From assembly GCF_002161805.1 (NCBI RefSeq), contig NZ_NFIP01000003.1:22341-46340 (forward strand): a stretch of DNA of 24,000 nt, in the 5' to 3' direction. The stretch is from Collinsella sp. An307 (GTDB lineage: Bacteria; Actinomycetota; Coriobacteriia; Coriobacteriales; Coriobacteriaceae). The position numbers and the translations under genes were made by a program. The notes below the pieces were generated by a model, which ran no database searches, was not told the origin of the DNA, and saw only the letters and a program-made list of their open reading frames with translations. Below are positions 9,816 to 17,931 of the stretch, in pieces (within the stretch, counting starts at the first letter, position 1; each line of letters opens with the position of its first letter).

Positions 9816-10425
9816 GTTCCTGGGCCGGCTGGGCGAGCTGCTCTCCTGCCTTCCGGCCGAGCAGGTGGAGGAGACCAAGGCTTTCTACGCGGAGGCCATC
9901 GCCGACCGCATGGAGGACGGTATGAGCGAGGAGGAGGCCGTGGCCGCCATGGGCACGCCCGGCGAGGTGGCGGAGGCCACGCTCGACGACCTGCCCGCCG
10001 TGCCGCGCGCGATCGCGAGGACGCGCCGGCGCAGCACCGCGCTGCTGTGGGTGCTGACCATCGTGGGCTCCCCGGTGTGGGTGCCTCTGCTCGCCGCCTT
10101 CGCCGCCGTGGCCGTCACGGTCTATATCTGCATCTGGGTGCTGGCGCTCTGCGTGTGGATCGTCGCGGCGGCGCTCGGGGGCGTGGGCGTAGTTGAGCTC
10201 CTGTTTGCCGTAAGCGGCGTCACCATCGGCCATTTCCCGTACGCCCTCGCCTCGGCGGGCGTGGGGCTCGGCCTCGTCGGCGCGGCGCTCTTCGTTGGTG
10301 CTGGCGCTTGGGCCGCCTCAAAACAAATTGCGCGCCTCTCGGCGCTCTGGGCGAGGAAGGTCGCCTCGCCCTTCTGGAAGGACAGGGGCGAGAAGGGCGG
10401 CGTGGCCGCGCACCTCGCGGCATAG
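9802..10425 (+). CDS. DUF1700-like membrane protein (PadR-associated)
   Basis: MMRDEFLGRLGELLSCLPAEQVEETKAFYAEAIADRMEDGMSEEEAVAAMGTPGEVA is typical of the DUF1700 N-terminus and is followed by TM helices. The start overlaps the end of padR. A GAGGAGG RBS is present. Confidence 0.8.
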   Translation: MMRDEFLGRLGELLSCLPAEQVEETKAFYAEAIADRMEDGMSEEEAVAAMGTPGEVAEATLDDLPAVPRAIARTRRRSTALLWVLTIVGSPVWVPLLAAFAAVAVTVYICIWVLALCVWIVAAALGGVGVVELLFAVSGVTIGHFPYALASAGVGLGLVGAALFVGAGAWAASKQIARLSALWARKVASPFWKDRGEKGGVAAHLAA

Positions 10426-10440
10426 GAAGGAGAGTGCATC

Positions 10441-10722
10441 ATGACCAGCGCGAAGAAGATCCACCTCGCCGTGGCGGGAGGGCTCGTCGCCGCGGGCGTC
10501 GTCCTCGCGGGCACCGGCTTTATCGCCTCGGGCTTCGACCCGGCCGTCTTCACGACCCAGATAGACATGCGCGACGACACCATCGTGCTCGGCGGCGTCG
10601 AGGTGGACGACCCGACGGGCCTCCCCCTCATCGAGCAGCTCGCTGGAATCGGCGAGGTCGACACCTCCGGCATCACCGCGTCCGAGTCCCCTGCTGCCCC
10701 GGAGGCGCCCACCGCTCCCTAA
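10441..10722 (+). pseudogene. Truncated third gene of the PadR operon (DUF4097-like N-terminus only)
   Basis: The N-terminal TM anchor (IHLAVAGGLVAAGVVLAGTGFIA) is typical of the DUF4097 proteins that follow PadR-DUF1700. Only 93 codons remain before the IS481-type remnant begins. Confidence 0.45.
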
Positions 10723-10724
10723 GC

Positions 10725-11010
10725 ATAGCGCGCCCGGCGCCAGCCCGGGCGGGGCGAGCGGCAGCGACGAGCGCGCCTCGCGGACCCGGTCCTCGACCTC
10801 GCGCGGCGTGGACCTCGCGAGCCTGCGCGGGCGGCTACTGCGGTCGGACATGGGCTCTCCGGACCTGCTGCGGCGCAGCCACTTGCTCGCCGTCTGGCGG
10901 TTGACGCCCATCTGACGCGCGGTCTCGGCGACGCCGAGGCCGGACTCTATGCGCGAGACGAGCGTCTCGCGTCCCCTCGGGGTGAGCCTTGCGTTAGGAT
11001 GTTGCTCCAT
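10725..11010 (-). pseudogene. IS481-family transposase, N-terminal HTH fragment only
   Basis: MEQHPNARLTPRGRETLVSRIESGLGVAETARQMGVNRQTASKWLRR...DRSSRPRR is the characteristic IS481-type N-terminus. No DDE catalytic domain follows. The long tracked ORF (10318-11046) continues as a shadow of the PadR operon. Confidence 0.65.
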
Positions 11011-11119
11011 GGGAGGGCTCCTCTGCTGTTCGTCTAGACAACTCACAGCATGTGGGAGCCCTCCCTATTTGTCACTACCCGGGTGTAAACAACCTATTGG
11101 CACAGAACAGCTAGAACAA

Positions 11120-11174
11120 CCGCCGCCCGCCTCACTGCGCCGAGAAACCCCCGGCGCCGTGAGGCGGGCGGCGG
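11120..11174. other. Very stable GC-rich hairpin
   Basis: A 16-bp perfect stem (CCGCCGCCCGCCTCAC 11120-11135 pairs with GTGAGGCGGGCGGCGG 11159-11174). An additional GCGCC/GGCGC pairing is possible inside the loop. No clear T-run on either strand. Confidence 0.55.
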
Positions 11175-11267
11175 AGTGAGCCAACAGCAAAGCCACGCCG
11201 CTAGTAGTAGCCTGTCACCAGCAATCTGCAAGTCACTAGCACCCCACAGCCGTGCCGACAGCATCCC

Positions 11268-11297
11268 TTGGTCGCCATATCAGCCGCACGGTATAAT
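11268..11297 (+). promoter_or_regulatory. Candidate sigma-70-type promoter for the 2-TM/protease operon
   Basis: TTGGTC (11268-11273), an 18-nt spacer, then TATAAT (11292-11297), about 90 nt upstream of the GTG start. Confidence 0.35.
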
Positions 11298-11387
11298 CTA
11301 TCCATCGATATATTGGTTGAACCATGGCGTCTCTGCTGTGACCATAAACCTCCGCAAGACGCTAGGACCTTGTTCTAAGGAGATCTG

Positions 11388-11930
11388 GTGGAGAAAGGTC
11401 AAGAGAACCCACCACAAGACCAGGCGCTTGCCCATAGAGTCAGGTGGGCTGACCTCGACAGCGTATTCGAGCACATGGGCGACAATACTAGCGTTGGAGA
11501 GGCAAGTAACGGCATCCACCTCATAAATGACCGGGAGCACGTCGCCGTGCGCCAGGACCACGAGGTTCGCATTCCCAATGAATACCTGCAGGAATCATAC
11601 GTCGGACAGCGCGACAGCGACCTGAGAAAAGCAAGGGAGATGCTCCTTCAGGCCAAGCAGGAACGCCCTTCCTACAAACCTGACATCCTTTTAGGTCTTG
11701 CGACAACGTTCCTGGGCTGGTTTCTCGGGGGTTTGTCGTCATCTGTCAATCTCGCATCTTTGCCCGGTATCTTGATGCTCTGCGTAGCACCGTGTGGCGC
11801 AGTAGGACTCTTTGTCGCTTTTATCTTTATCCGAAAAGAAGAGAAGCAGGGCAAATCTGATCTGGCCGAGCGCGTCCTAGAACACCTGGCGGATCCCGAT
11901 GACAAGGAGACCAAGACCGATGAACATTAA
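11388..11930 (+). CDS. Two-TM membrane protein with a ~95-aa cytoplasmic N-domain, function unknown
   Basis: GTG start 5 nt after AAGGAG. Two hydrophobic helices are present (ILLGLATTFLGWFLGGLSS and LPGILMLCVAPCGAVGLFVAFIFI). The tail is acidic. The stop overlaps the downstream ATG. Confidence 0.7.
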   Translation: MEKGQENPPQDQALAHRVRWADLDSVFEHMGDNTSVGEASNGIHLINDREHVAVRQDHEVRIPNEYLQESYVGQRDSDLRKAREMLLQAKQERPSYKPDILLGLATTFLGWFLGGLSSSVNLASLPGILMLCVAPCGAVGLFVAFIFIRKEEKQGKSDLAERVLEHLADPDDKETKTDEH

Positions 11931-12684
11931 TGATACGAGCACACAGCTGCTCTTTACCACGGTCCCTATCGTGGGCATTACTACCGAAGGCACGGGCGTC
12001 TCGGGTACAGGATTCTTCTTTTCCTATGACCTTGAAGACGGGCGAAACGTGCCCCTGCTCATTACCAATCACCATGTCCTCAAGGATGTGATTCAGGGTC
12101 GCTTCGTCATCAATCTGGCCGAAGGTGACGCCCCGTCACGCGAGACCATCAGCGTGAACTTCGACAAGTCATTCATCGAGGGGAAGAAGCTCGGAGAGCT
12201 CGACTTGGTTGCGATGCCGGTGGCCCCTGTTCTCAGCATGCTTGAAGAAAACGGGAAGAGGCCCTTCTACCGATCCATCGACTCTGGACTCATCCCGAAG
12301 AAGAGTGTGCTGGACAATTTGGCGGCGCTCGAGCAAATCACCTTTATCGGATACCCCAGCGGGCTCTACGACGACTACAACAAGACCCCCCTCATCAGGC
12401 AAGGCTGGACTTCCACGCCCGCTTGGAACGACTACAAGGGTAAGCGCGAGTTCCTCGTTGACGCATCTGTATTCGAGGGCTCCAGCGGCAGTCCCGCCTT
12501 CATTCTCAACCAGGGCAGCTATCCCACGACCGACGGAATTGCCATCGGCTCCAGGCTGCTGTTCATGGGCGTAATCACTCAAACGATTACGAAGGAGAAG
12601 AGTGAGCACCTCGATTTAGGTACAGTCATCAGAAGCGACGCGATGCTCGTCAAGCTCAAACCTTTCGTGGAAGGTCTGCTGTAG
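11920..12684 (+). CDS. Cytoplasmic trypsin/chymotrypsin-fold serine protease (Trypsin_2-like)
   Basis: Catalytic triad candidates are His in LLITNHHVL, Asp in GELDLVAM, and Ser in FEGSSGSPAF (Ser codon 12484-12486). There is no signal peptide, TM segment or PDZ domain. ATG 11920 overlaps the upstream gene end; an alternative start is at 11899. Confidence 0.85.
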   Translation: MNINDTSTQLLFTTVPIVGITTEGTGVSGTGFFFSYDLEDGRNVPLLITNHHVLKDVIQGRFVINLAEGDAPSRETISVNFDKSFIEGKKLGELDLVAMPVAPVLSMLEENGKRPFYRSIDSGLIPKKSVLDNLAALEQITFIGYPSGLYDDYNKTPLIRQGWTSTPAWNDYKGKREFLVDASVFEGSSGSPAFILNQGSYPTTDGIAIGSRLLFMGVITQTITKEKSEHLDLGTVIRSDAMLVKLKPFVEGLL

Positions 12685-13007
12685 CTAAGAGCGCCGTCAA
12701 AAGCAGTGACGCCCCTTTGCTCCTTTCCCTAGGATGAGGTGACTGAGCTCGGTATGCTGGTTGACATCTGGCTCCCCAACGGCTCATAGTACAGACACAT
12801 GGAAAGCCTTCGGGTTTTGTAAGGGCGGGACCCACTGGGCCTCGCTCTTGTTAAAGGCTTTAGCCTGTGCGCCGCGCGCAGCGCGGCGCATCAGAAACCA
12901 CCCGCTATGCGGGTGGCGCCAACCGGCTTTACAAAGCCGCCCCCTCGCCGGACACTTGCGATTGTTCAGGCCGCAGGGAATCCGAGTGGGGAGGGCGGTG
13001 ATGGCGT

Positions 13008-13478
13008 ATGGCCCAGAAGGCCTACAGCCTGTCGCACGCGAAGTGGATGTGCAGGCACCACGTCGTGTTCACGCCGAAGCGTAGGCGCAAAGTCGTCTAC
13101 AACCAAGTGAGGGCCGACCTTGGGGAGATCTTCAGGAAGCTCTGCCGGTACAAGGGGATGGAGATCATCGAGGGGCACCTGATGCCCGACCACGTCCATA
13201 TGCTGCTGGCGATACCGCCGAAGTACAGCGTGTCCAGCGTGATGGGCTGCCTGAAGGGGAAGAGCTCGCTGATGATATTCGACAGGCACGCGAACATGAG
13301 GTACAAGTTCGGCAACAGGAAGTTCTGGGCCGAGGGCTACTACGTGTCCACCGTCGGCCTGAACGAGGCGACGATCGCGAAGTACATCCGGGAGCAGGAG
13401 AAGGCCGACATCGCGCTCGACCGGCTGAGCGTCAAGGAGTACGAGGACCCCTTCGATAGGGGGCCGAAGCGGAAATAG
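13008..13478 (+). CDS. tnpA: IS200/IS605 family Y1 (HUH) transposase TnpA
   Basis: HHVVFTPKRRRKV, the HUH motif in PDHVHMLL, and the catalytic Tyr region EGYYVSTVG match the family. The length (156 aa) is typical. Confidence 0.9.
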   Translation: MAQKAYSLSHAKWMCRHHVVFTPKRRRKVVYNQVRADLGEIFRKLCRYKGMEIIEGHLMPDHVHMLLAIPPKYSVSSVMGCLKGKSSLMIFDRHANMRYKFGNRKFWAEGYYVSTVGLNEATIAKYIREQEKADIALDRLSVKEYEDPFDRGPKRK

Positions 13479-13586
13479 CGCCGGTTCGACCGGCCCGTCA
13501 CGGGTCAATCTGCATGCGGCCCGAACCCCGTGAGGGCCGGCGCCTTTAGACGCGTGCCGGCAACCCAAGGGTTATACCCTAAGAGC

Positions 13587-13613
13587 AAACCACCCCTTTT
13601 AGGGGTGGTTTTG
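13587..13613 (+). terminator. Terminator hairpin at the IS200 right end
   Basis: AAACCACCCC pairs with GGGGTGGTTT around a T-rich loop and runs into TTTT. Confidence 0.65.
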
Positions 13614-13637
13614 ATTATCTGCCCCGATAAGGAGCCC

Positions 13638-13700
13638 CTGGCGAGAGAGCTCAGCATATTCGTGGACGAGAGCGGCGACCGAGGCGGCAAGGCGCGCTAC
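13638..13700 (+). pseudogene. DUF3800-like gene start (about 20 codons only)
   Basis: An AAGGAG is followed by ...ELSIFVDESGDRGGKARY. The (I/F)xDESGD motif is the hallmark N-terminus of DUF3800 proteins. The frame then degenerates. Confidence 0.4.
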
Positions 13701-13708
13701 AATATAAG

Positions 13709-14099
13709 GAGCTGGACGAAGACGAGAAGTCGTTCGAGAAGCTCGGCATTACATTCGAGGAGAAGGCCTTCTGCGACATCCTCGTGAAGGTGCGCAACGA
13801 GCATGGCTTTCCCTACGAGGAGGAGAAGTACCTTGTTCTCGCCAAGGCTATCAAGGAACCCGTCGACGACAAGGCTCAATACGCTGACTGGTCAACGCGT
13901 GATAACATTATAAAACCAGCTCAACATGGACCTTACCGTTCTGCTTTATAAGAACGGTTATCCGCAGGAGCGGGACGAAGAGGTATCTGAGAAGGTCCTG
14001 GAACAAACTGAAAACCTCAAGGCAGAATCGAACTGCAGCTTCGAAGCGATGAAATGGTCAAAACAGGCAACATCTGATTTGCAACGTCGAACAGCATAG
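13709..14099 (+). pseudogene. hsdR: Type I restriction enzyme R subunit (HsdR) C-terminal fragment, frameshifted
   Basis: ELDEDEKSFEKLGITFEEKAFCDILVKVRNEHGF...LAKAIKEPVDDKAQYADWSTRDNI, then after a +1 shift near the A-run at 13912-13915, QLNMDLTVLLYKNGYPQERDEEVSEKVLEQTENL. This matches the HsdR C-terminal (DUF3387-type) pattern ...AFYD.L...DW..R......L..L..L.K.GYPP......V..Q.E. There is no helicase or nuclease part. Confidence 0.6.
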
Positions 14100-14113
14100 C
14101 TAAGGACTATCAA

Positions 14114-16654
14114 ATGGTTGATTTTAAAAAGATGGCAGCATCGCAGAACCCTACGCTGCGCATAAAGCCTGATGAGATTTTCGATAGGCTGCCGAAACCC
14201 CAATCCTTTGATGATTTACATAGCAGCCAGGCTGAGGTACTTGATGCATGGTTTGCTAACAGAAAAACGAAAGACACCGTTATCAAGCTTAATACGGGAG
14301 GCGGCAAAACCCTTATAGGCCTGCTGATTGCCCTCTCTAGTGCACGAGAGCTAAAACGTGGAGCATTGTACCTTGTCGACAACAAACAGCTTGTCCATCA
14401 AGTGTGCGAACAAGCAAGGACACTTGGAATACCCGCTTCCGAATATAACGGAAGGGGATCGCTTACTGCGGATTTCAGAAATGGCTCAACGATTCTCGTT
14501 GCCCATTATCAAGCCCTCTTTAACGGCAAGTCCTCCTTCGGCTTGGAAGGAGGACCCGAAGCCGAGGAAGTTTCAGTAATCATCATAGATGATGCACACT
14601 CTTCCTTTGACTCGGTTCGAAGCGCATTCACGGTGGAGATAAATGCATCGGATGCGCCTGGCTTATATCAAGAAGTTGCGACGCTCTTTCGCTCAAGCTT
14701 TGATGATATCGATAAAGTGTCAACTTTCGACGATTTCGTTTCTGGGACTCGCACAGCTGGCGAAGAGGTGCTGGAGGTCCCATTCTGGGCGTGGGAAAAG
14801 CATCGACAGAAGGTCGCCCGAAGCATTTCTGATTTCGCAGCATCAAATAAAAAAGGCACGCTTACGGCAAACTCTATAAGCTTTGGCTGGGATCTCATCA
14901 AAGACGATCTCAAGTACTGTCTTGCAACGCTGAGTCGTGACAGATTCTCAATTACTCCAATTCTTCCCCTTGTGGAGAAGTTTCCGACATTCGAAGAAGC
15001 ACCTAGAAGAGTGTACATGTCTGCAACGTTTGCTGACGAAAGTGCAATCGTTAGATCGTTTGGATGCAAGAAAGATGACATCAACGTCATCTCCCCCAAA
15101 ACACTTGCTGGTGTAGGGCGGAGGATGGTTCTCGAGATTGGGGCAAAAGAAGAGCTTCGAACCGCGCTCGTCGAGAAAATGATTGCCCTTGCGAAAGACA
15201 AAAAGGGCGTCGTAGTCCTCGAACCGAGCTTTGCAACTGCAGAGCAATGGGAACAATTGGGAATCCCCACTGTAAAAGGAAGCGAGGTTGTTCAGGCTGT
15301 AAACGCCCTGAAGGTAAGTAAGCTGGACACACCAATTGTATTTGCAAATCGATACAACGGTATTGACTTGCCAGGCGATGCATGCCGTATGCTTGTCGTC
15401 TCAGGCATCCCCAAGGGGATGTCCGATCACCATAAATTGATGTCGAAAATCCTAGTCCATAGCAAAGTCTATGCCCGCTCAATCGCCCAAAACATTGAGC
15501 AAGCAATGGGCAGAGGTACAAGGGGTTCGGGTGATTACTGTGTCGTTGCTTTGATTGGATTCGATCTTTGCGAGTGGGTTAATGACAACCGCCATGCTGT
15601 GTTCTTGACCCCTACAACAAGAGCCCAAATCGAATGCGGGCAAGGCATTATGAACGAAGTAAAGTCAGCAGAAGACTTCGTTGAGGTTATCGATCAGGGA
15701 GTCAATGACGACCCCGATTTTGCAGCCTATTTGTCAAGCTATGTGGCAGATAAGGTCAACGATTTTGAATTTGTTGACGACAGCATGCTCGAAGATTTTG
15801 CTCTCTGTGAAAGAAAAGCGCTAAACGAATGGCGCAAAGGCAGGAGTGGTCGAGCTGTCGAGCTCCTAAAACAATTTACGAATAGTGAAAATATAGACAA
15901 TTCAGTAAAGGGACTTGTCCTCCGCCTGGCAGCTCAAATTGCCTATTCGGATGACGATGTAGAGACTTCCAAAGAGCTACAGACTCGCGCAAACGGGCTC
16001 AACCGTTCACTTGCTAAGCCCATGTTCTCTAGCTCAGGCTCTGGCGTTAGCTTGCAAGCAAGAAAGATAATTGAATTCATTTCGCACCAAACTCGAAAAA
16101 GCAGCGATGTGTCGACGAAATTCGACACAGACTTGAAATCCTTATCGGAGCAATGCGATTCAAGAGAATTCGAATCAAAACTCGAGCTGCTGGGGAAATA
16201 CCTTGGTGCCAGCTCGAAACGTTACGACGATAACGGTGACGGACCCGACGTTGCCTGGGTTTTTGAAGAAGAGGATATTGCTTTTGCCTTTGAAGCAAAA
16301 AACGAAAAACTTTCGGATAATCCGCTCACGAAACAAGAGCATGGACAGCTTCAGGTCGCAAAAGAGTGGTTACGAGCTCAGTATCCAAAAATGAAATGTT
16401 TTGCAATATCTGTTCATCCAAATAATTTGGCATACAAGAATGCAAGTGCAGAATCAGCATTAGTGCTTACGCTTAATAAGCTTAACGGACTTGTAAAATC
16501 GATTGGTCAATTGATTGCGATCCTAAGTCATGGAACGCTTAATGAGAGAGGTCGATTGGCGGAATGCGAGATGCTAATCGACCAGCACAACCTTCGCCCC
16601 GACCAGATCCTTGATACCAGGGTTGAAACATTCATAGCTAAGGAACAAGGGTAG
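14114..16654 (+). CDS. SF2 DEAH-type (DinG/XPD-like) helicase fused to a C-terminal PD-(D/E)xK-like nuclease domain
   Basis: Helicase motifs seen: Q-like HSSQAEVL; I, LNTGGGKT; Ia, LYLVDNKQLVHQV; II, IIIDDAHS; III, YMSATF; Helicase_C_2-like ANRYNGIDLPGDACRMLVVSGIP; VI, QAMGRGTRGSGDYCVV. The C-terminal ~160 aa carry GPDVAWVFEEEDIAFAFEAKNEK (Asp 16247-16249; E-A-K 16292-16300). An AAGGA RBS is present. The gene is AT-rich relative to its flanks. Confidence 0.85.
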   Translation: MVDFKKMAASQNPTLRIKPDEIFDRLPKPQSFDDLHSSQAEVLDAWFANRKTKDTVIKLNTGGGKTLIGLLIALSSARELKRGALYLVDNKQLVHQVCEQARTLGIPASEYNGRGSLTADFRNGSTILVAHYQALFNGKSSFGLEGGPEAEEVSVIIIDDAHSSFDSVRSAFTVEINASDAPGLYQEVATLFRSSFDDIDKVSTFDDFVSGTRTAGEEVLEVPFWAWEKHRQKVARSISDFAASNKKGTLTANSISFGWDLIKDDLKYCLATLSRDRFSITPILPLVEKFPTFEEAPRRVYMSATFADESAIVRSFGCKKDDINVISPKTLAGVGRRMVLEIGAKEELRTALVEKMIALAKDKKGVVVLEPSFATAEQWEQLGIPTVKGSEVVQAVNALKVSKLDTPIVFANRYNGIDLPGDACRMLVVSGIPKGMSDHHKLMSKILVHSKVYARSIAQNIEQAMGRGTRGSGDYCVVALIGFDLCEWVNDNRHAVFLTPTTRAQIECGQGIMNEVKSAEDFVEVIDQGVNDDPDFAAYLSSYVADKVNDFEFVDDSMLEDFALCERKALNEWRKGRSGRAVELLKQFTNSENIDNSVKGLVLRLAAQIAYSDDDVETSKELQTRANGLNRSLAKPMFSSSGSGVSLQARKIIEFISHQTRKSSDVSTKFDTDLKSLSEQCDSREFESKLELLGKYLGASSKRYDDNGDGPDVAWVFEEEDIAFAFEAKNEKLSDNPLTKQEHGQLQVAKEWLRAQYPKMKCFAISVHPNNLAYKNASAESALVLTLNKLNGLVKSIGQLIAILSHGTLNERGRLAECEMLIDQHNLRPDQILDTRVETFIAKEQG

Positions 16655-16885
16655 TCTCGTTGTGGATTCCTCGCCAAAACCGAGCGTATTAAAGCGCTTG
16701 AGATGTTTTTCAATCTTGGTCATTACAACGGCTGATCTTAGTTTTCAGAAGAGACAACTGCTGGATAACGGATACCCAGAAGTTTTGGCGGCATCCATCC
16801 ATGCCAACATCCCCGAGTTCATGCAGGAGGGGAGGACCTTCTAGGTGAGATGGAGATCGGCTGTTGACGAGCGGCGCAATAGATG

Positions 16886-17037: not shown

Positions 17038-17931
17038 CTACTCATCCAGCAGAGTCACGTCCAGGTAGCGCCGGGAGCCCCAGGAGCTCTCCGCAACGTA
17101 CTTGAGCCTCGCGGTCACGAGCATGAGGGCCGACCTGCCGTCGGGGAAGGTGCCGACCACGCGCGTGCGTCTGCGAATCTCGCGGTTGAGGCGCTCGATG
17201 GCGTTGTTGGTCCTGATCCTCCGCCAGTGCTCGCGGGGGAACCTGGCGTACGTCAGCGTCTCGGCGCAGCCGTCCCTGACGACCATGGCGGCCTCCCTGA
17301 GCTTGGACTTCTCGAGTTCGGATGCAACCTCGAGGGCCTTGGCCTCGGCGGCCTCGGGCGACTCCATCGCGTGGATCGCCTTCAGCATGGCGGCGACCCT
17401 CGGGCGCCTGGTCTTCGGCACCCTCGCCAGAACGTTTCTGTAGAAGTGGACCGTGCAGCGCTGGTAGGCGGCCTCCGGGAAGACCTCGGCGATCGACCCC
17501 ACCATGCCGGCGGCCTTGTCGCCCGTGAACATGCGAACCCCGCGCAGGCCGCGCGACCTCAGCCGGGAGAGGAACTCCCGCCAGCACTCCGAGGACTCCG
17601 TGAAGCCCTCGGCCGCGCCTATGACCTCGCGGTAGCCGTCGTCGTTGACACCTATCGCCACCATCACGGCCACGTTCTCGTAGGAGCCTCCCCAGCTGCG
17701 CTTGAGGTAGATTCCGTCCACGTAGACGTAGGGGTACGCCCGCTCGAGGGGCCTGTTCCTCCACGCCTCCACGGCCTCGAACGCCCTCTCGTTGAGGTTG
17801 GAGACGGTCGCCGCGGACACCGACGACCCCCACAGGATCTCGCTCACGTCCTCAATCCTGCGCGTCGAGACGCCGGCGAGGTACATCTCTATCATGGCCT
17901 CCTCGACGCTGGTCTCCCGGCGCCGGTAACG
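17038..17931 (-). pseudogene. IS256-family (Mutator-type) transposase, C-terminal ~3/4, disrupted
   Basis: ...YRRRETSVEEAMIEMYLAGVSTRRIEDV...YVYVDGIYLKRSWGG...VAIGVNDDGYREVIG...CTVHFYRNVL...TNNAIERLNREIRRRTRVVGTFPD are hallmark IS256 transposase blocks. The frame is contiguous with 19879-20151 once the IS21 element is removed. Confidence 0.85.

Follow-up and report, generated by a model that had tools for sequence, protein, structure and literature searches.

Two overlapping genes on a contig of Collinsella sp. An307 (NZ_NFIP01000003.1) raise the question whether a small two-helix membrane protein and a trypsin-fold protease encoded directly behind it form a conflict module, and, if so, which of the two proteins acts upon the other. 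The window, i.e. the whole stretch of 24,000 nucleotides that was analysed, had previously been read from its letters alone, and this initial annotation proposed an uncharacterised conflict or abortive-infection pair operating either as a protease-gated membrane effector or as a membrane sensor that controls a toxic protease. All coordinates below are positions of the window, and the two genes with all their parts lie on its forward strand.

Gene A (11388..11930) is an ORF of 180 aa that begins with GTG at 11388, 5 nt behind an AAGGAG ribosome-binding site (11377..11382). A homologue with 70% identity (L138) has its start at the same position, with a TTG codon, and has kept the ribosome-binding site, which confirms the start of gene A; the GTG start, the AAGGAG and the two hydrophobic helices described initially were borne out. 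Kyte-Doolittle windows of at least 1.6 were found exclusively at residues ~98-148, which comprise TM1 (residues ~98-118, 11679..11741) and TM2 (residues ~125-148, 11760..11831), the latter containing the highest window (2.55). Since the flanks of the helices are basic and the 9-residue loop between them is uncharged, the product is predicted to be an N-in/C-in membrane hairpin. The predicted cytoplasmic parts are a most variable N-region (residues 1-55, 11388..11552) with 16% mean pairwise identity, a conserved segment (residues 56-96, 11553..11675) carrying [VIL]60-[RK]61-x-P63 and a basic helix at ~72-90, and an acidic C-tail (11832..11927) with the motif LAE..L-x-L-P-D-P. The AF2 model, obtained from a 6-sequence alignment, was unusable (pLDDT 43); at this low confidence it depicts residues 1-55 as coil and places a helix at 69-91.

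Gene B (11920..12684, 254 aa) overlaps gene A by 11 nt (11920..11930). As read from the sequence, its ATG at 11920 lies ahead of the gene A stop codon (11928-11930), and the last codons of gene A double as the ribosome-binding site of gene B, an arrangement pointing to translational coupling. In comparison with L138, dN/dS amounted to ~0.07 for gene A and ~0.06 for gene B, with dS being saturated, and the sequences indicate that both are real genes under purifying selection.

The product of gene B is a predicted S1/PA-clan serine protease. It matched Pfam Trypsin_2 (PF13365) over residues 29-194 with 34.8 bits at a cut-off of 27.6 (3.3e-8), upholding the family that had been suggested for it. 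Both the serine motif G-x-S-G-x-P and the His-Asp-Ser order are present, the predicted catalytic codons being 12073-12075 (H52), 12202-12204 (D95) and 12484-12486 (S189), the last of which is the serine codon that the initial annotation had picked out. H52, D95 and S189 (within GSSGSP) were invariant in 19 gene B homologues of 49-85% identity, and the triad was kept in the distant protease clade as well. An AF2 model showed the double beta-barrel of trypsin (pLDDT 84.7, pTM 0.85), so that the overlap, the triad and the fold of the 254-aa protein agreed with the first reading. Foldseek with this model gave 178 PDB matches at E<=0.001, headed by DegS, DegP, the S1C domain of RsgI9 and 3C proteases with TM-scores of ~0.5-0.55 and identities of 12-18%. 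A sequence search of the PDB yielded no matches, and a viral fold library yielded generic 3C and astrovirus protease matches only. Among the profile libraries, phrog_7688 was matched at 7e-47, and a weak resemblance to the protease domain of the defence RT-protease class XI was observed.

No hydrophobic 19-residue window of gene B reached 1.6 (maximum 1.27), and its first 30 residues contain no K/R and two acidic residues and are modelled inside the fold. Trypsin_2 was the only domain detected by the Pfam scan, with neither a PDZ nor a cell-wall-binding domain, and the chain ends 60 residues past this domain in a helix. Gene B is consequently predicted to be a proteolytic enzyme of the cytoplasm, a bare protease domain without a sensor. 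The possibility of an HtrA/DegP quality-control protease was rejected because PDZ domain and export signal are missing; hydropathy and Pfam here agree with the initial reading, which had seen neither signal peptide nor anchor nor PDZ domain. HtrA, DegP and DegS share the Trypsin_2 family with gene B and provide, in their protease domain, its best structural matches, but identity is 13-18% and, unlike them, gene B is a predicted cytoplasmic protein devoid of the named additions.

Whether the two genes belong together was evaluated in other genomes. Outside Collinsella, the close protease clade is represented by 21 genome loci, each of which has a gene A homologue directly upstream on the same strand (21/21); the distant protease clade, with 13 loci, showed no such partner gene (0/13). 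Starting from gene A, a metagenome search using a narrowed alignment detected the protease directly downstream in every locus with room for it. Genes A and B are obligately linked in both directions, and the expected synteny of their homologues was thereby found to hold, strictly adjacent, across at least 10 phyla; the occurrence is patchy, Firmicutes and gut Coriobacteriia making up most of it and other phyla being scattered. Across 18 pairs taken from various lineages, the junctions measured between -20 and +12 nt. The two proteins co-diverge, their distances being correlated (Mantel r=0.80, a value reached by 0/5000 permutations), with gene A evolving faster than gene B (mean identity 24% vs 49%). 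Decay of single genes was also observed: two loci (L048, L126) have a disrupted partner and an intact protease, and one (L057) keeps an intact partner next to a protease without the His region, all three being metagenome assemblies, some of which may be assembly errors. The fused ORF of L057 was rejected as evidence for a gene fusion, as it is a deletion product in which the protease N-terminus with the catalytic His region is missing. A conserved third component was rejected likewise, since flanking genes are common to close lineages only.

Gene A is not an orphan, as concluded from the upstream ORFs of protease homologues, a local profile test and an exhaustive profile search. A profile made from upstream partners in other phyla scored gene A with 83.8 bits (shuffles reached a maximum of 1.1), and the exhaustive search defined a family of 112 representatives at 50% identity with lengths of 49-201 aa, mostly 140-190 aa. 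Word-indexed searches with gene A returned matches nearly all of at least 70% identity, and a profile query added the distant members P0129 and P0130. No family model in Pfam, NCBIfam, PADLOC or PHROG matched the family, and 90 of its members gave no consistent match to Pfam (E<=0.1), EACC1 included. The gene A family (~112 clusters at 50% identity) is new to databases in that the libraries searched hold no model of it.

Column statistics and pairwise identities were calculated from 109 family members. TM1 is the best-conserved region with 34% pairwise identity; G110 is invariant (109/109), positions 103, 105, 106, 114, 115 and 118 are occupied by G/A/S/T in at least 88% of the members, and residues 103/106/110/114/118 form a stripe of small residues resembling a glycine zipper. 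E/D99 occurs in 96%, and in TM2 P135 was found in 75% and R/K149 in 93%. Within segment 56-96, an aliphatic residue occupies position 60 in 95%, P63 is kept in 80% and L79 is aliphatic in 98%, the basic helix having K/R81 in 88% and R/K83 in 80%; the C-tail shows L164 in 71%, L/I167 in 92% and P170 in 66%. Conservation is highest in the hairpin and lowest in residues 1-55, so that the hairpin seems to be the functional portion of the protein. Clear targets for mutation are G110, the 103/106/110/114/118 stripe, V60-R61-x-P63 and the LPDP tail.

The pair is contained in a transferable cassette with recognisable edges. On the left, homology with two further loci (L033 and L040) begins at ~11110 beside a GC-rich 55-nt hairpin (11120..11174; -53.8 kcal/mol, z = -9.3), in which L033 carries the compensatory change from CCTCAC/GTGAGG to CCCCAC/GTGGGG; against Rfam this hairpin gave hairpin noise only and no real family. 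On the right, a conserved 3' region on the forward strand (12685..12850) extends to the cassette edge, where homology with Collinsella and Ellagibacter loci ends at ~12850-12852 and gives way to three-way divergence; no terminator-like site was found by the site scan. The promoter proposed for the pair, TTGGTC-N18-TATAAT read from the sequence at 11268..11297 of the forward strand, fared less evenly: the site exists and is kept in L138 as TTGATT-N18-TACAAT, an island inside a diverged upstream region, but the consensus scan left it unflagged because its -35 hexamer matches the consensus at just 3/6 positions. The cassette has a GC content of 0.54-0.57 compared to 0.69-0.73 of the PadR operon and is foreign to its host, in line with the AT-richness noted at the outset.

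In the window the cassette is flanked by an IS481 N-terminal remnant and an IS200 transposase, with C-terminal fragments of a Type I R-subunit and a DEAD/ResIII helicase nearby, the latter matching PADLOC PDC-S28; the IS481, IS200, hsdR and helicase neighbours listed in the first reading were seen again. The cassette holds a fixed position beside a PadR-HAAS regulator operon in ~40 Collinsella species representatives. A functional link to this operon was nevertheless rejected, since L033 and L040 contain the cassette without the PadR block; in the window, the IS481 remnant stands between the two. Flanks differ between lineages. The neighbours in independent lineages, listed descriptively by type, belong to mobile elements (integrases, serine recombinases, insertion sequences), to restriction (GmrSD and restriction-modification of Type I/II) or to other defence and toxin functions (AbiEii, an AAA_21 ATPase, SLFN/AlbA_2, RelB-YafQ and PDC-S28). 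A PADLOC scan of 150 neighbour proteins gave a family summary dominated by generic, redundant methyltransferase models, and its 'mad2' model is hit even by a common SAM methyltransferase of the window, so that this summary is unusable as a measure of enrichment.

The protease itself matched the PADLOC model PDC-S45 at 7.1e-69 (230 bits, profile 11-254 of 293). The gene B clade is a sister clade of this uncharacterised single-gene candidate. The two share the catalytic triad, lack a signal peptide and are encoded in prophages, on plasmids and in islands. They differ in that the partner-less clade scores 275-330 bits with the PDC-S45 model and has an internal insertion of ~21 aa and a length of 280-300 aa, whereas the two-gene clade scores 230-267 bits and always occurs with the upstream two-helix gene, for which PADLOC has no model. 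The term 'uncharacterised' stands insofar as no experimental work on the A/B family or on PDC-S45 was found in the literature, the latter appearing in one searchable paper and there as PADLOC output only, but not insofar as the protease is already catalogued. Taken together with the synteny, these mobile and defence-type rather than housekeeping surroundings and the PDC-S45 match support the candidate conflict module put forward in the initial annotation.

Several characterised systems pair a protease with a small effector. EACC1, Pepco, an MBL-fold hydrolase and an alpha/beta-hydrolase have been described as latent death effectors encoded 5' of defence proteases and freed by site-specific cleavage, EACC1 and Pepco forming pores and Pepco being cut at I97|R98 (bioRxiv 10.1101/2025.11.14.688446). 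The two-gene EACC1-caspase system (Kaur et al. 2020, PMC7159879; Evans et al. 2025, bioRxiv 10.1101/2025.11.14.688446) resembles the present pair in that a small protein, membrane-active in EACC1 and putatively so in A, is encoded 5' of the protease gene. The hydrophobic helix of EACC1 has a conserved small/glycine patch, to which G110 and the small-residue stripe in TM1 of A may correspond. Release of EACC1 from N-terminal autoinhibition by cleavage, followed by pore formation, has been shown, whereas for A it is proposed. EACC1 has one TM helix and ~12.8 kDa (the sum of two cleavage fragments) compared to two helices and 17-20 kDa in A, its caspase-like protease is fused to large sensor/variable domains where gene B is a bare 254-aa S1 domain, and EACC1 systems show enrichment in actinobacteria and cyanobacteria that are multicellular rather than in Firmicutes and gut Coriobacteriia. 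Pepco (Trypco1/2) likewise accompanies a defence protease of trypsin type as a small partner, and it becomes pore-active by a single cut after an aliphatic residue, for which the conserved [VI]-[RK] dipeptide of A offers a parallel. Pepco is, however, soluble, of ~12 kDa, assembles into beta-barrel nonamers/decamers and becomes active once its C-terminal tail is lost, whereas A is a predicted alpha-helical integral membrane hairpin without a sequence match to it; in addition, the proteases of Pepco modules carry fused sensors such as Avs or vWA-MoxR-associated (VMAP) ones, and gene B is unfused. Membership of A in Trypco/Pepco or EACC1 was rejected owing to the missing profile match and the different architecture. 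In bacterial gasdermins a protease removes an inhibitory segment, upon which the membrane is permeabilised (review PMC13434031). The logic proposed for A/B, a protease licensing a membrane-permeabilising protein, is shared by these operons, but gasdermins are soluble, form beta-sheet pores, have proteases with NLR-like, CARD or repeat sensors and show no homology to A/B. By Pfam and PADLOC, A matched none of the described effector families (Pepco/Trypco, EACC1, MBL, alpha/beta-hydrolase, gasdermin, the CATRA-associated small protein CATASP and the metallophosphoesterase MPE). Proteases of protease-effector modules come with a sensor, either in the same chain or encoded alongside (STAND/Avs, Hachiman, repeats and others), and gene B is the protease domain alone, with no third gene conserved across lineages.

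As the leading reading we tentatively propose that the pair is a self-contained conflict cassette of two genes, horizontally mobile, and most likely serves against phages as a module of the abortive-infection type with protease-effector logic; by analogy to EACC1, Pepco and gasdermin, we favour a protease-gated membrane effector over a membrane sensor controlling the protease. According to this proposal, one transcript and translational coupling would provide both proteins, and A would insert as an N-in/C-in hairpin with its ~96-aa N-region and its acidic C-tail facing the cytoplasm. An infection-linked trigger would then cause protease B to cut the cytoplasmic part of A, speculatively at the conserved [VI]60-[RK]61-x-P63 motif, thereby stripping off an inhibitory N-region. 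The freed glycine-zipper hairpin could oligomerise and depolarise or permeabilise the membrane, so that the infected cell would be stopped.

In favour of this reading stand obligate linkage, the Mantel correlation, purifying selection, the invariant triad, the conserved hairpin of A, the PDC-S45 match, the weak likeness to RT-protease class XI, the mobile and defence-type neighbours, the absence of a third gene conserved across lineages, and the precedent of EACC1, Pepco and the other cleaved effectors. The tolerated decay of either gene fits a latent effector and its activator, not a strict toxin-antitoxin pair. On the other hand, the existence of a related partner-less clade suggests that the protease itself may be the effector, protease B lacks a sensor domain unlike every characterised protease-effector module, protein A appears to be constitutively integral to the membrane and is no Pepco/Trypco or EACC1 by Pfam, and the fixed position in ~40 Collinsella representatives is less island-like than that of a typical defence gene.

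A rival reading is the reverse wiring, in which A would be a membrane sensor or tether and B the effector of what would still be a defence module. A might hold B inactive at the membrane, e.g. via its acidic C-tail, until phage DNA injection or membrane perturbation frees B to cut essential host or phage proteins. The stand-alone sister clade in prophages, plasmids and islands suggests that a protease may suffice as effector, a partner would supply the sensor that B lacks, the variable N-region of A fits a surface recognising diverse invaders, and membrane sensors are known from two-gene systems such as Kiwa with KwaA (review PMC13434031). We regard this wiring as unlikely all the same: the best-conserved part of A is the hairpin with its zipper-like stripe, which is expected of an oligomerising effector rather than of a tether, L048 and L126 keep the protease despite a disrupted partner, which should be harmful if A restrained a toxic B, and the characterised small partners 5' of defence proteases are all both substrate and effector. 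A still more doubtful possibility is that hairpin protein A itself senses infection, either as phage-induced membrane perturbation or through a phage protein captured by its rapidly evolving N-region, and signals directly to protease B, which would then attack host or phage proteins or turn the sensor A into a pore, with no need for an NTPase, a nucleotide signal or a repeat-type sensor. Such a pair would be a complete minimal immune system of new logic, and both clades would be a new defence family in which the single-gene PDC-S45 clade is either derived or ancestral.

Explanations outside of immunity are less probable. The translationally coupled, compact cassette that moves between genomes, often beside integrases, recombinases, insertion sequences and classical toxin-antitoxin pairs, and its foreign GC content would suit a selfish addiction or stabilisation module resembling toxin-antitoxin systems, with a membrane toxin checked by the protease or vice versa and no dedicated anti-phage role. 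We consider this improbable, as natural loci lose either gene singly, an enzyme as 'antitoxin' offers no obvious post-segregational killing, neither product has a repressor or autoregulatory DNA-binding domain by Pfam, and the protease family scores as a PADLOC defence candidate. A role in housekeeping or signalling, with A as a membrane adaptor recruiting B for regulated proteolysis unrelated to conflict, could be read from the nearest solved folds, which include DegS, DegP and the S1C domain of the anti-sigma factor RsgI9, and from the conserved Collinsella position beside the PadR-HAAS operon. The likeness to DegS and RsgI9 is at the level of the fold only, and the patchy distribution with flanks unmatched between lineages, the foreign GC content, the L033/L040 cassettes without a PadR block and the intervening IS481 remnant make this role very improbable. 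The slimmest chance is given to a lysis cassette, in which a class-II-holin-like A and a lytic S1 peptidase would lyse the cell or release a prophage, tailocin or bacteriocin. Classically, the lysin gene follows the holin gene and overlaps it, which the order of A and B recalls, and some S1 enzymes, e.g. alpha-lytic protease, are bacteriolytic, as B might be. Class II holins or pinholins such as S21 of phage 21 are two-helix N-in/C-in hairpins with an oligomerising glycine-zipper face, a charged C-tail and an overlapping downstream gene, features to which the topology, the zipper-like helix and the charged tail of A correspond. Holins, however, typically have no cytoplasmic N-domain of 75-95 aa such as that predicted for A and sit in lysis cassettes beside muralytic enzymes, whereas B is without a cell-wall-binding domain. 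The pair gave two weak partial matches only in 50,697 sequenced phage records, was present on 2 of 2.9 million viral contigs of IMG/VR, and had no late or structural phage genes beside it in any locus examined; being nearly missing from phage genomes, it was rejected as a phage lysis cassette.

Recent work has established death effectors gated by proteolysis as a dominant principle of bacterial immunity, and in every characterised case the protease is attached to a large sensor. A module of two proteins, a bare 254-aa protease and an integral-membrane partner, would be the smallest proteolysis-gated system, and, if the proposal is true, sensing without a sensor domain becomes the question to answer. 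For annotation of the PADLOC/DefenseFinder type it matters that beside the catalogued 'single-gene' candidate PDC-S45 there is a large sister clade whose partner is obligate and has no model. As the cassette is carried by ~40 human-gut Collinsella species representatives, it may shape the susceptibility of a common gut genus to phages and mobile elements.

The membrane protein gene (gene A, 11388..11930, forward strand) is an open reading frame for 180 aa with a GTG start, preceded at a distance of 5 nt by an AAGGAG ribosome-binding site. The gene following on the same strand (gene B, 11920..12684), which encodes a Trypsin_2 protease of 254 aa, begins with an ATG located within the final codons of gene A, the stop codon of which occupies 11928-11930. 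Both the start signals and the overlap proposed in the initial annotation were thus read in the sequence. The gene B product matched the Pfam Trypsin_2 profile above cut-off, and the His/Asp/Ser triad, including the serine codon pointed out previously, was invariant (H52, D95, S189) in an alignment of 19 sequences. The AF2 model was confident (pLDDT 84.7) and retrieved DegS, DegP, the S1C domain of RsgI9 and viral 3C proteases as Foldseek neighbours, all of the trypsin fold, with a TM-score of only ~0.55 and 12-18% identity; a PDB sequence search revealed no detectable relative. By profile, triad and fold, the gene B product is a member of the Peptidase S1/Trypsin_2 family. No hydrophobic segment, basic N-terminus or PDZ domain was seen in the protein, consistent with the earlier proposal that signal peptide, anchor and PDZ domain are lacking, and no sensor domain was found. 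An HtrA/DegP identity was rejected, because the PDZ domain and the export signal are missing. Relatives of the protease number in the hundreds, and it is present with 98-100% amino acid identity in 45 genome records, of which almost all bear the label Collinsella. The host genome belongs to the aerofaciens group of Collinsella. The product further matched PDC-S45, a single-gene 'phage defence candidate' of PADLOC, at 7e-69, as well as phrog_7688, a PHROG of unknown function.

Hydrophobic windows in the gene A product are confined to residues ~98-148, in agreement with two hydrophobic helices following a soluble N-region. Since the flanks of this hairpin are basic and its loop consists of 9 uncharged residues, an N-in/C-in topology is predicted, in which a region of ~96 residues and an acidic tail of 32 residues would face the cytoplasm. 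A word-indexed search returned near-identical relatives only, which reflects the limit of that search; an exhaustive profile search yielded a partner family with 112 representatives at 50% identity. Its members are short, stand-alone proteins (49-201 aa, mostly 140-190), none of the 112 representatives is fused to another domain, and no model in Pfam, NCBIfam, PADLOC or PHROG covers the family. Conservation was analysed in an alignment of 109 sequences. The first transmembrane helix (TM1) is the best-conserved part with 34% pairwise identity; Gly110 is invariant, and positions 103, 105, 106, 114, 115 and 118 are G/A/S/T in at least 88%, the small residues falling on one face with glycine-zipper spacing. 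The hairpin is framed by E/D99, P135 and R/K149. Variation is greatest in residues 1-55 (16% identity). A basic helix and the motif [VIL]60-[RK]61-x-P63 are located in residues 56-96, and the C-terminal tail contains the motif L-x-x-L-P-D-P. The AF2 model of this protein was unusable (pLDDT 43). Comparison with a homologous pair (L138; 70% and 85% identity for A and B) gave dN/dS values of ~0.06-0.07 for both genes, with dS saturated. These results bear out the initial description of the pair, serine codon included.

The two genes are linked far beyond Collinsella. Upstream open reading frames were read next to protease homologues from, among others, Firmicutes, Nitrospirae, Ferrimonas, Planctomycetota, Solitalea, Myxococcales, Chloroflexota and Spirochaetales; all of them encode 150-160 aa on the same strand directly 5' of the protease, and their products show a pair of hydrophobic helices at ~75-93 and ~101-119. 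A profile built from these other-phyla proteins, leaving out the window protein, matched the gene A product with 83.8 bits, compared to a maximum of 1.1 among 500 shuffles. With profiles for both proteins, the close protease clade was found to have the partner at each of its 21 genome loci outside Collinsella, with a frameshift in some, whereas a more distant clade lacked it at all 13 loci; eight further loci retrieved by exact protein look-up have it as well. Reciprocally, 32 metagenome loci were collected by a partner-specific peptide pattern, and the protease followed directly 3' of the partner in every locus with sufficient room, so that the synteny called for by the initial annotation was observed in both directions. 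In the one apparent exception (L124), the partner gene is broken at the same point as in L126 (1655-3272), where an insertion sequence lies within the partner gene (transposase of 332 aa on the opposite strand, just past TM2); L124 probably carries the same type of transposase insertion. Across 18 pairs, the junctions between the genes range from -20 to +12 nt, and the final codons of the partner supply the ribosome-binding site of the protease. Pairwise distances of partner and protease correlate (r=0.80, a value reached by 0 of 5000 permutations), with the partner diverging about twice as fast. No third gene conserved across lineages was found. The pair is a real, well-delimited and conserved two-gene module.

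The partner-less protease clade (L066-L079, L096-L105) contains an internal insertion of ~21 residues, corresponding to a low-confidence loop of the gene B product (residues 224-231), and is the form mostly found on plasmids and viral contigs, near viral contig ends. The PDC-S45 model fits this clade better (275-330 bits) than the two-gene clade (230-267 bits), which places the window protease in a sister clade defined by a partner absent from the catalogue. Gene B thus matches the PDC-S45 profile but departs from the single-gene definition of the candidate.

Within the window, the region of the pair has a GC content of 0.54-0.57 compared to ~0.70 in the flanking PadR-HAAS operon, confirming that it is richer in AT. 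The segment 9340-12852 is common to most Collinsella representatives with ~96-97% nucleotide identity, whereas an Ellagibacter metagenome-assembled genome (MAG; L033) and Collinsella AK_207A (L040) share only 11110-12852, which delimits a transferable cassette of 1.74 kb. At its left edge lies a GC-rich hairpin of 55 nt (11120-11174; -53.8 kcal/mol, z -9.3), which shows a compensatory stem change in L033, corresponds to no real Rfam family and has no second copy in the window; it may act as an insulating terminator or be a site of recombination. The proposed promoter of the pair, TTGGTC-N18-TATAAT (11268-11297), was borne out in part. L138 has TTGATT-N18-TACAAT with the same spacing in otherwise diverged surroundings and also keeps the ribosome-binding site and start position of gene A (GTG versus TTG), but the -35 hexamer is weak and the site was not flagged by a consensus scan. 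The sole site flagged by that scan, TTGACA-N18-CATAGT at 12761-12790 (+), lies 3' of the protease gene, still within the conserved 3' region of the cassette, and is directed outward.

The IS481 remnant, the IS200 element, the hsdR remnant and the helicase named in the initial annotation were each matched. The IS481 remnant (10318-11046, reverse strand) is reduced to its N-terminal part with the HTH and leucine zipper. Exactly at the right cassette edge, where homology to most other Collinsella loci stops, lies an IS200/IS605-type element (12853-13500) with a palindromic end at ~12868-12890 and a Y1 transposase (13008-13478, 3.9e-37). Two consecutive short open reading frames (13784-14099) resemble the last ~70 positions of T1RH-like_C below cut-off, and look like the frameshifted tail of an hsdR gene (Type I restriction R subunit). 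They are followed by a DEAD/ResIII helicase of 846 aa (14114-16654, forward strand), which matched PDC-S28, another PADLOC candidate, at 8e-241 and also phrog_16128, and for which the initial annotation suggested a C-terminal nuclease. Among 45 Collinsella loci, the block containing the helicase (12853-16840) is shared by three only (L001, L003, L045). An IS256/Mutator transposase remnant (17038-17895, reverse strand) lacks the first ~107 profile positions. The segment 1-9340, with a lower GC content of 0.45-0.58, has no counterpart in any of the 45 related Collinsella loci. It contains genes for SAM methyltransferases (LCM, Methyltransf_11) and for one protein with a weak, below-cut-off match to tRNA_anti-like (OB-fold), together with several family-less open reading frames; the sole PADLOC hit there, to mad2, is a generic methyltransferase match.

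Among the neighbours of the pair in other lineages are tyrosine integrase fragments, XRE regulators, SLFN/AlbA_2 ATPases, AbiEii and RelB-ParE/YafQ pairs; DUF3427 helicase, HsdR_N, HsdS and EcoEI_R_C beside an ImmA/XRE prophage module; DNA methylases and NOV_C; GmrSD and transposases; and two large serine recombinases or an AAA_21 ATPase pair. Listed locus by locus, this company is that of defence and other accessory cargo genes. In the PADLOC summary of the neighbouring proteins, generic methyltransferase hits predominate and give no usable statistic.

The pair is translationally coupled and co-inherited, mobile and set among accessory genes, and it encodes an intact cytoplasmic serine protease. 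According to the predicted topology, the cytoplasm-facing parts of the hairpin protein lie within reach of this protease, and within the partner it is the hairpin that is under the strongest constraint. Recent experimental work showed that the small proteins whose genes precede those of defence proteases act as latent death effectors, freed by site-specific cleavage; EACC1, Pepco/Trypco, an MBL-fold nuclease and an alpha/beta-hydrolase were the families tested (Evans et al., bioRxiv 10.1101/2025.11.14.688446). In that study EACC1 sheds an inhibitory domain from its N-terminus and forms pores, and Pepco is cleaved after a conserved Ile (I97|R98). By analogy, the most likely function of the pair would be that of a protease-gated latent membrane effector. 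The protease would remove the N-region of the partner, speculatively at the conserved [VI]60-[RK]61 dipeptide, and the freed glycine-zipper hairpin might then oligomerise, resulting in membrane collapse.

The principal alternative is the opposite wiring, in which the protease is the effector and the partner serves as a sensor or tether; it gains weight from the sister clade, whose proteases stand alone. An addiction module appears less likely. Frameshifts affect one or both genes in L048, L064/L065 and L133, and L057 (5662-6732) contains an in-frame partner-protease fusion without the catalytic His region; a broken partner accompanies an intact protease in L048 and L126, and a broken protease an intact partner in L057. 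These natural decay forms are more compatible with an activator plus a latent effector than with a strict toxin-antitoxin pair, which is weak evidence since the loci are metagenome assemblies. A lysis cassette is also less likely; the partner is similar to pinholins in topology only, and the pair is nearly absent from sequenced phages and rare in viral contigs. The same grading applies to a housekeeping role for this mobile pair.

In gene order and co-inheritance the pair is similar to described protease-effector modules; nevertheless, those have a sensor-fused protease and a partner of known family, and the pair has neither. EACC1 itself resembles the partner in idea only, as a small-residue-rich helix encoded 5' of a protease. 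No paper testing this family was found in the literature; for PDC-S45 one paper was found, where it appears as software output, and the candidate is not discussed in the main text of the paper introducing the PADLOC candidates (Payne et al., bioRxiv 10.1101/2024.01.29.577857). The protease had already been listed as a candidate for defence. The result is clear-cut and lends itself to testing, yet the pair is one among many uncharacterised candidates, with a function proposed by analogy.

Some loci showed peculiarities of their own. Two MAG contigs assigned to Bacteroidota, labelled Alloprevotella (L021) and Sodaliphilus (L024), carry the Collinsella block with ~97% nucleotide identity, probably due to mis-binning rather than transfer. 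Only in the lineage of protein P0012 (L080-L084), an XRE-family HTH gene (135-144 aa) is located directly 5' of the pair on the same strand and may represent a lineage-specific regulator. In a 70%-identical relative (L139, 806-3067), two more co-directional genes, encoding 116 and 215 aa without Pfam family, form a chain of overlaps with the partner gene, suggesting a four-gene operon in this lineage.
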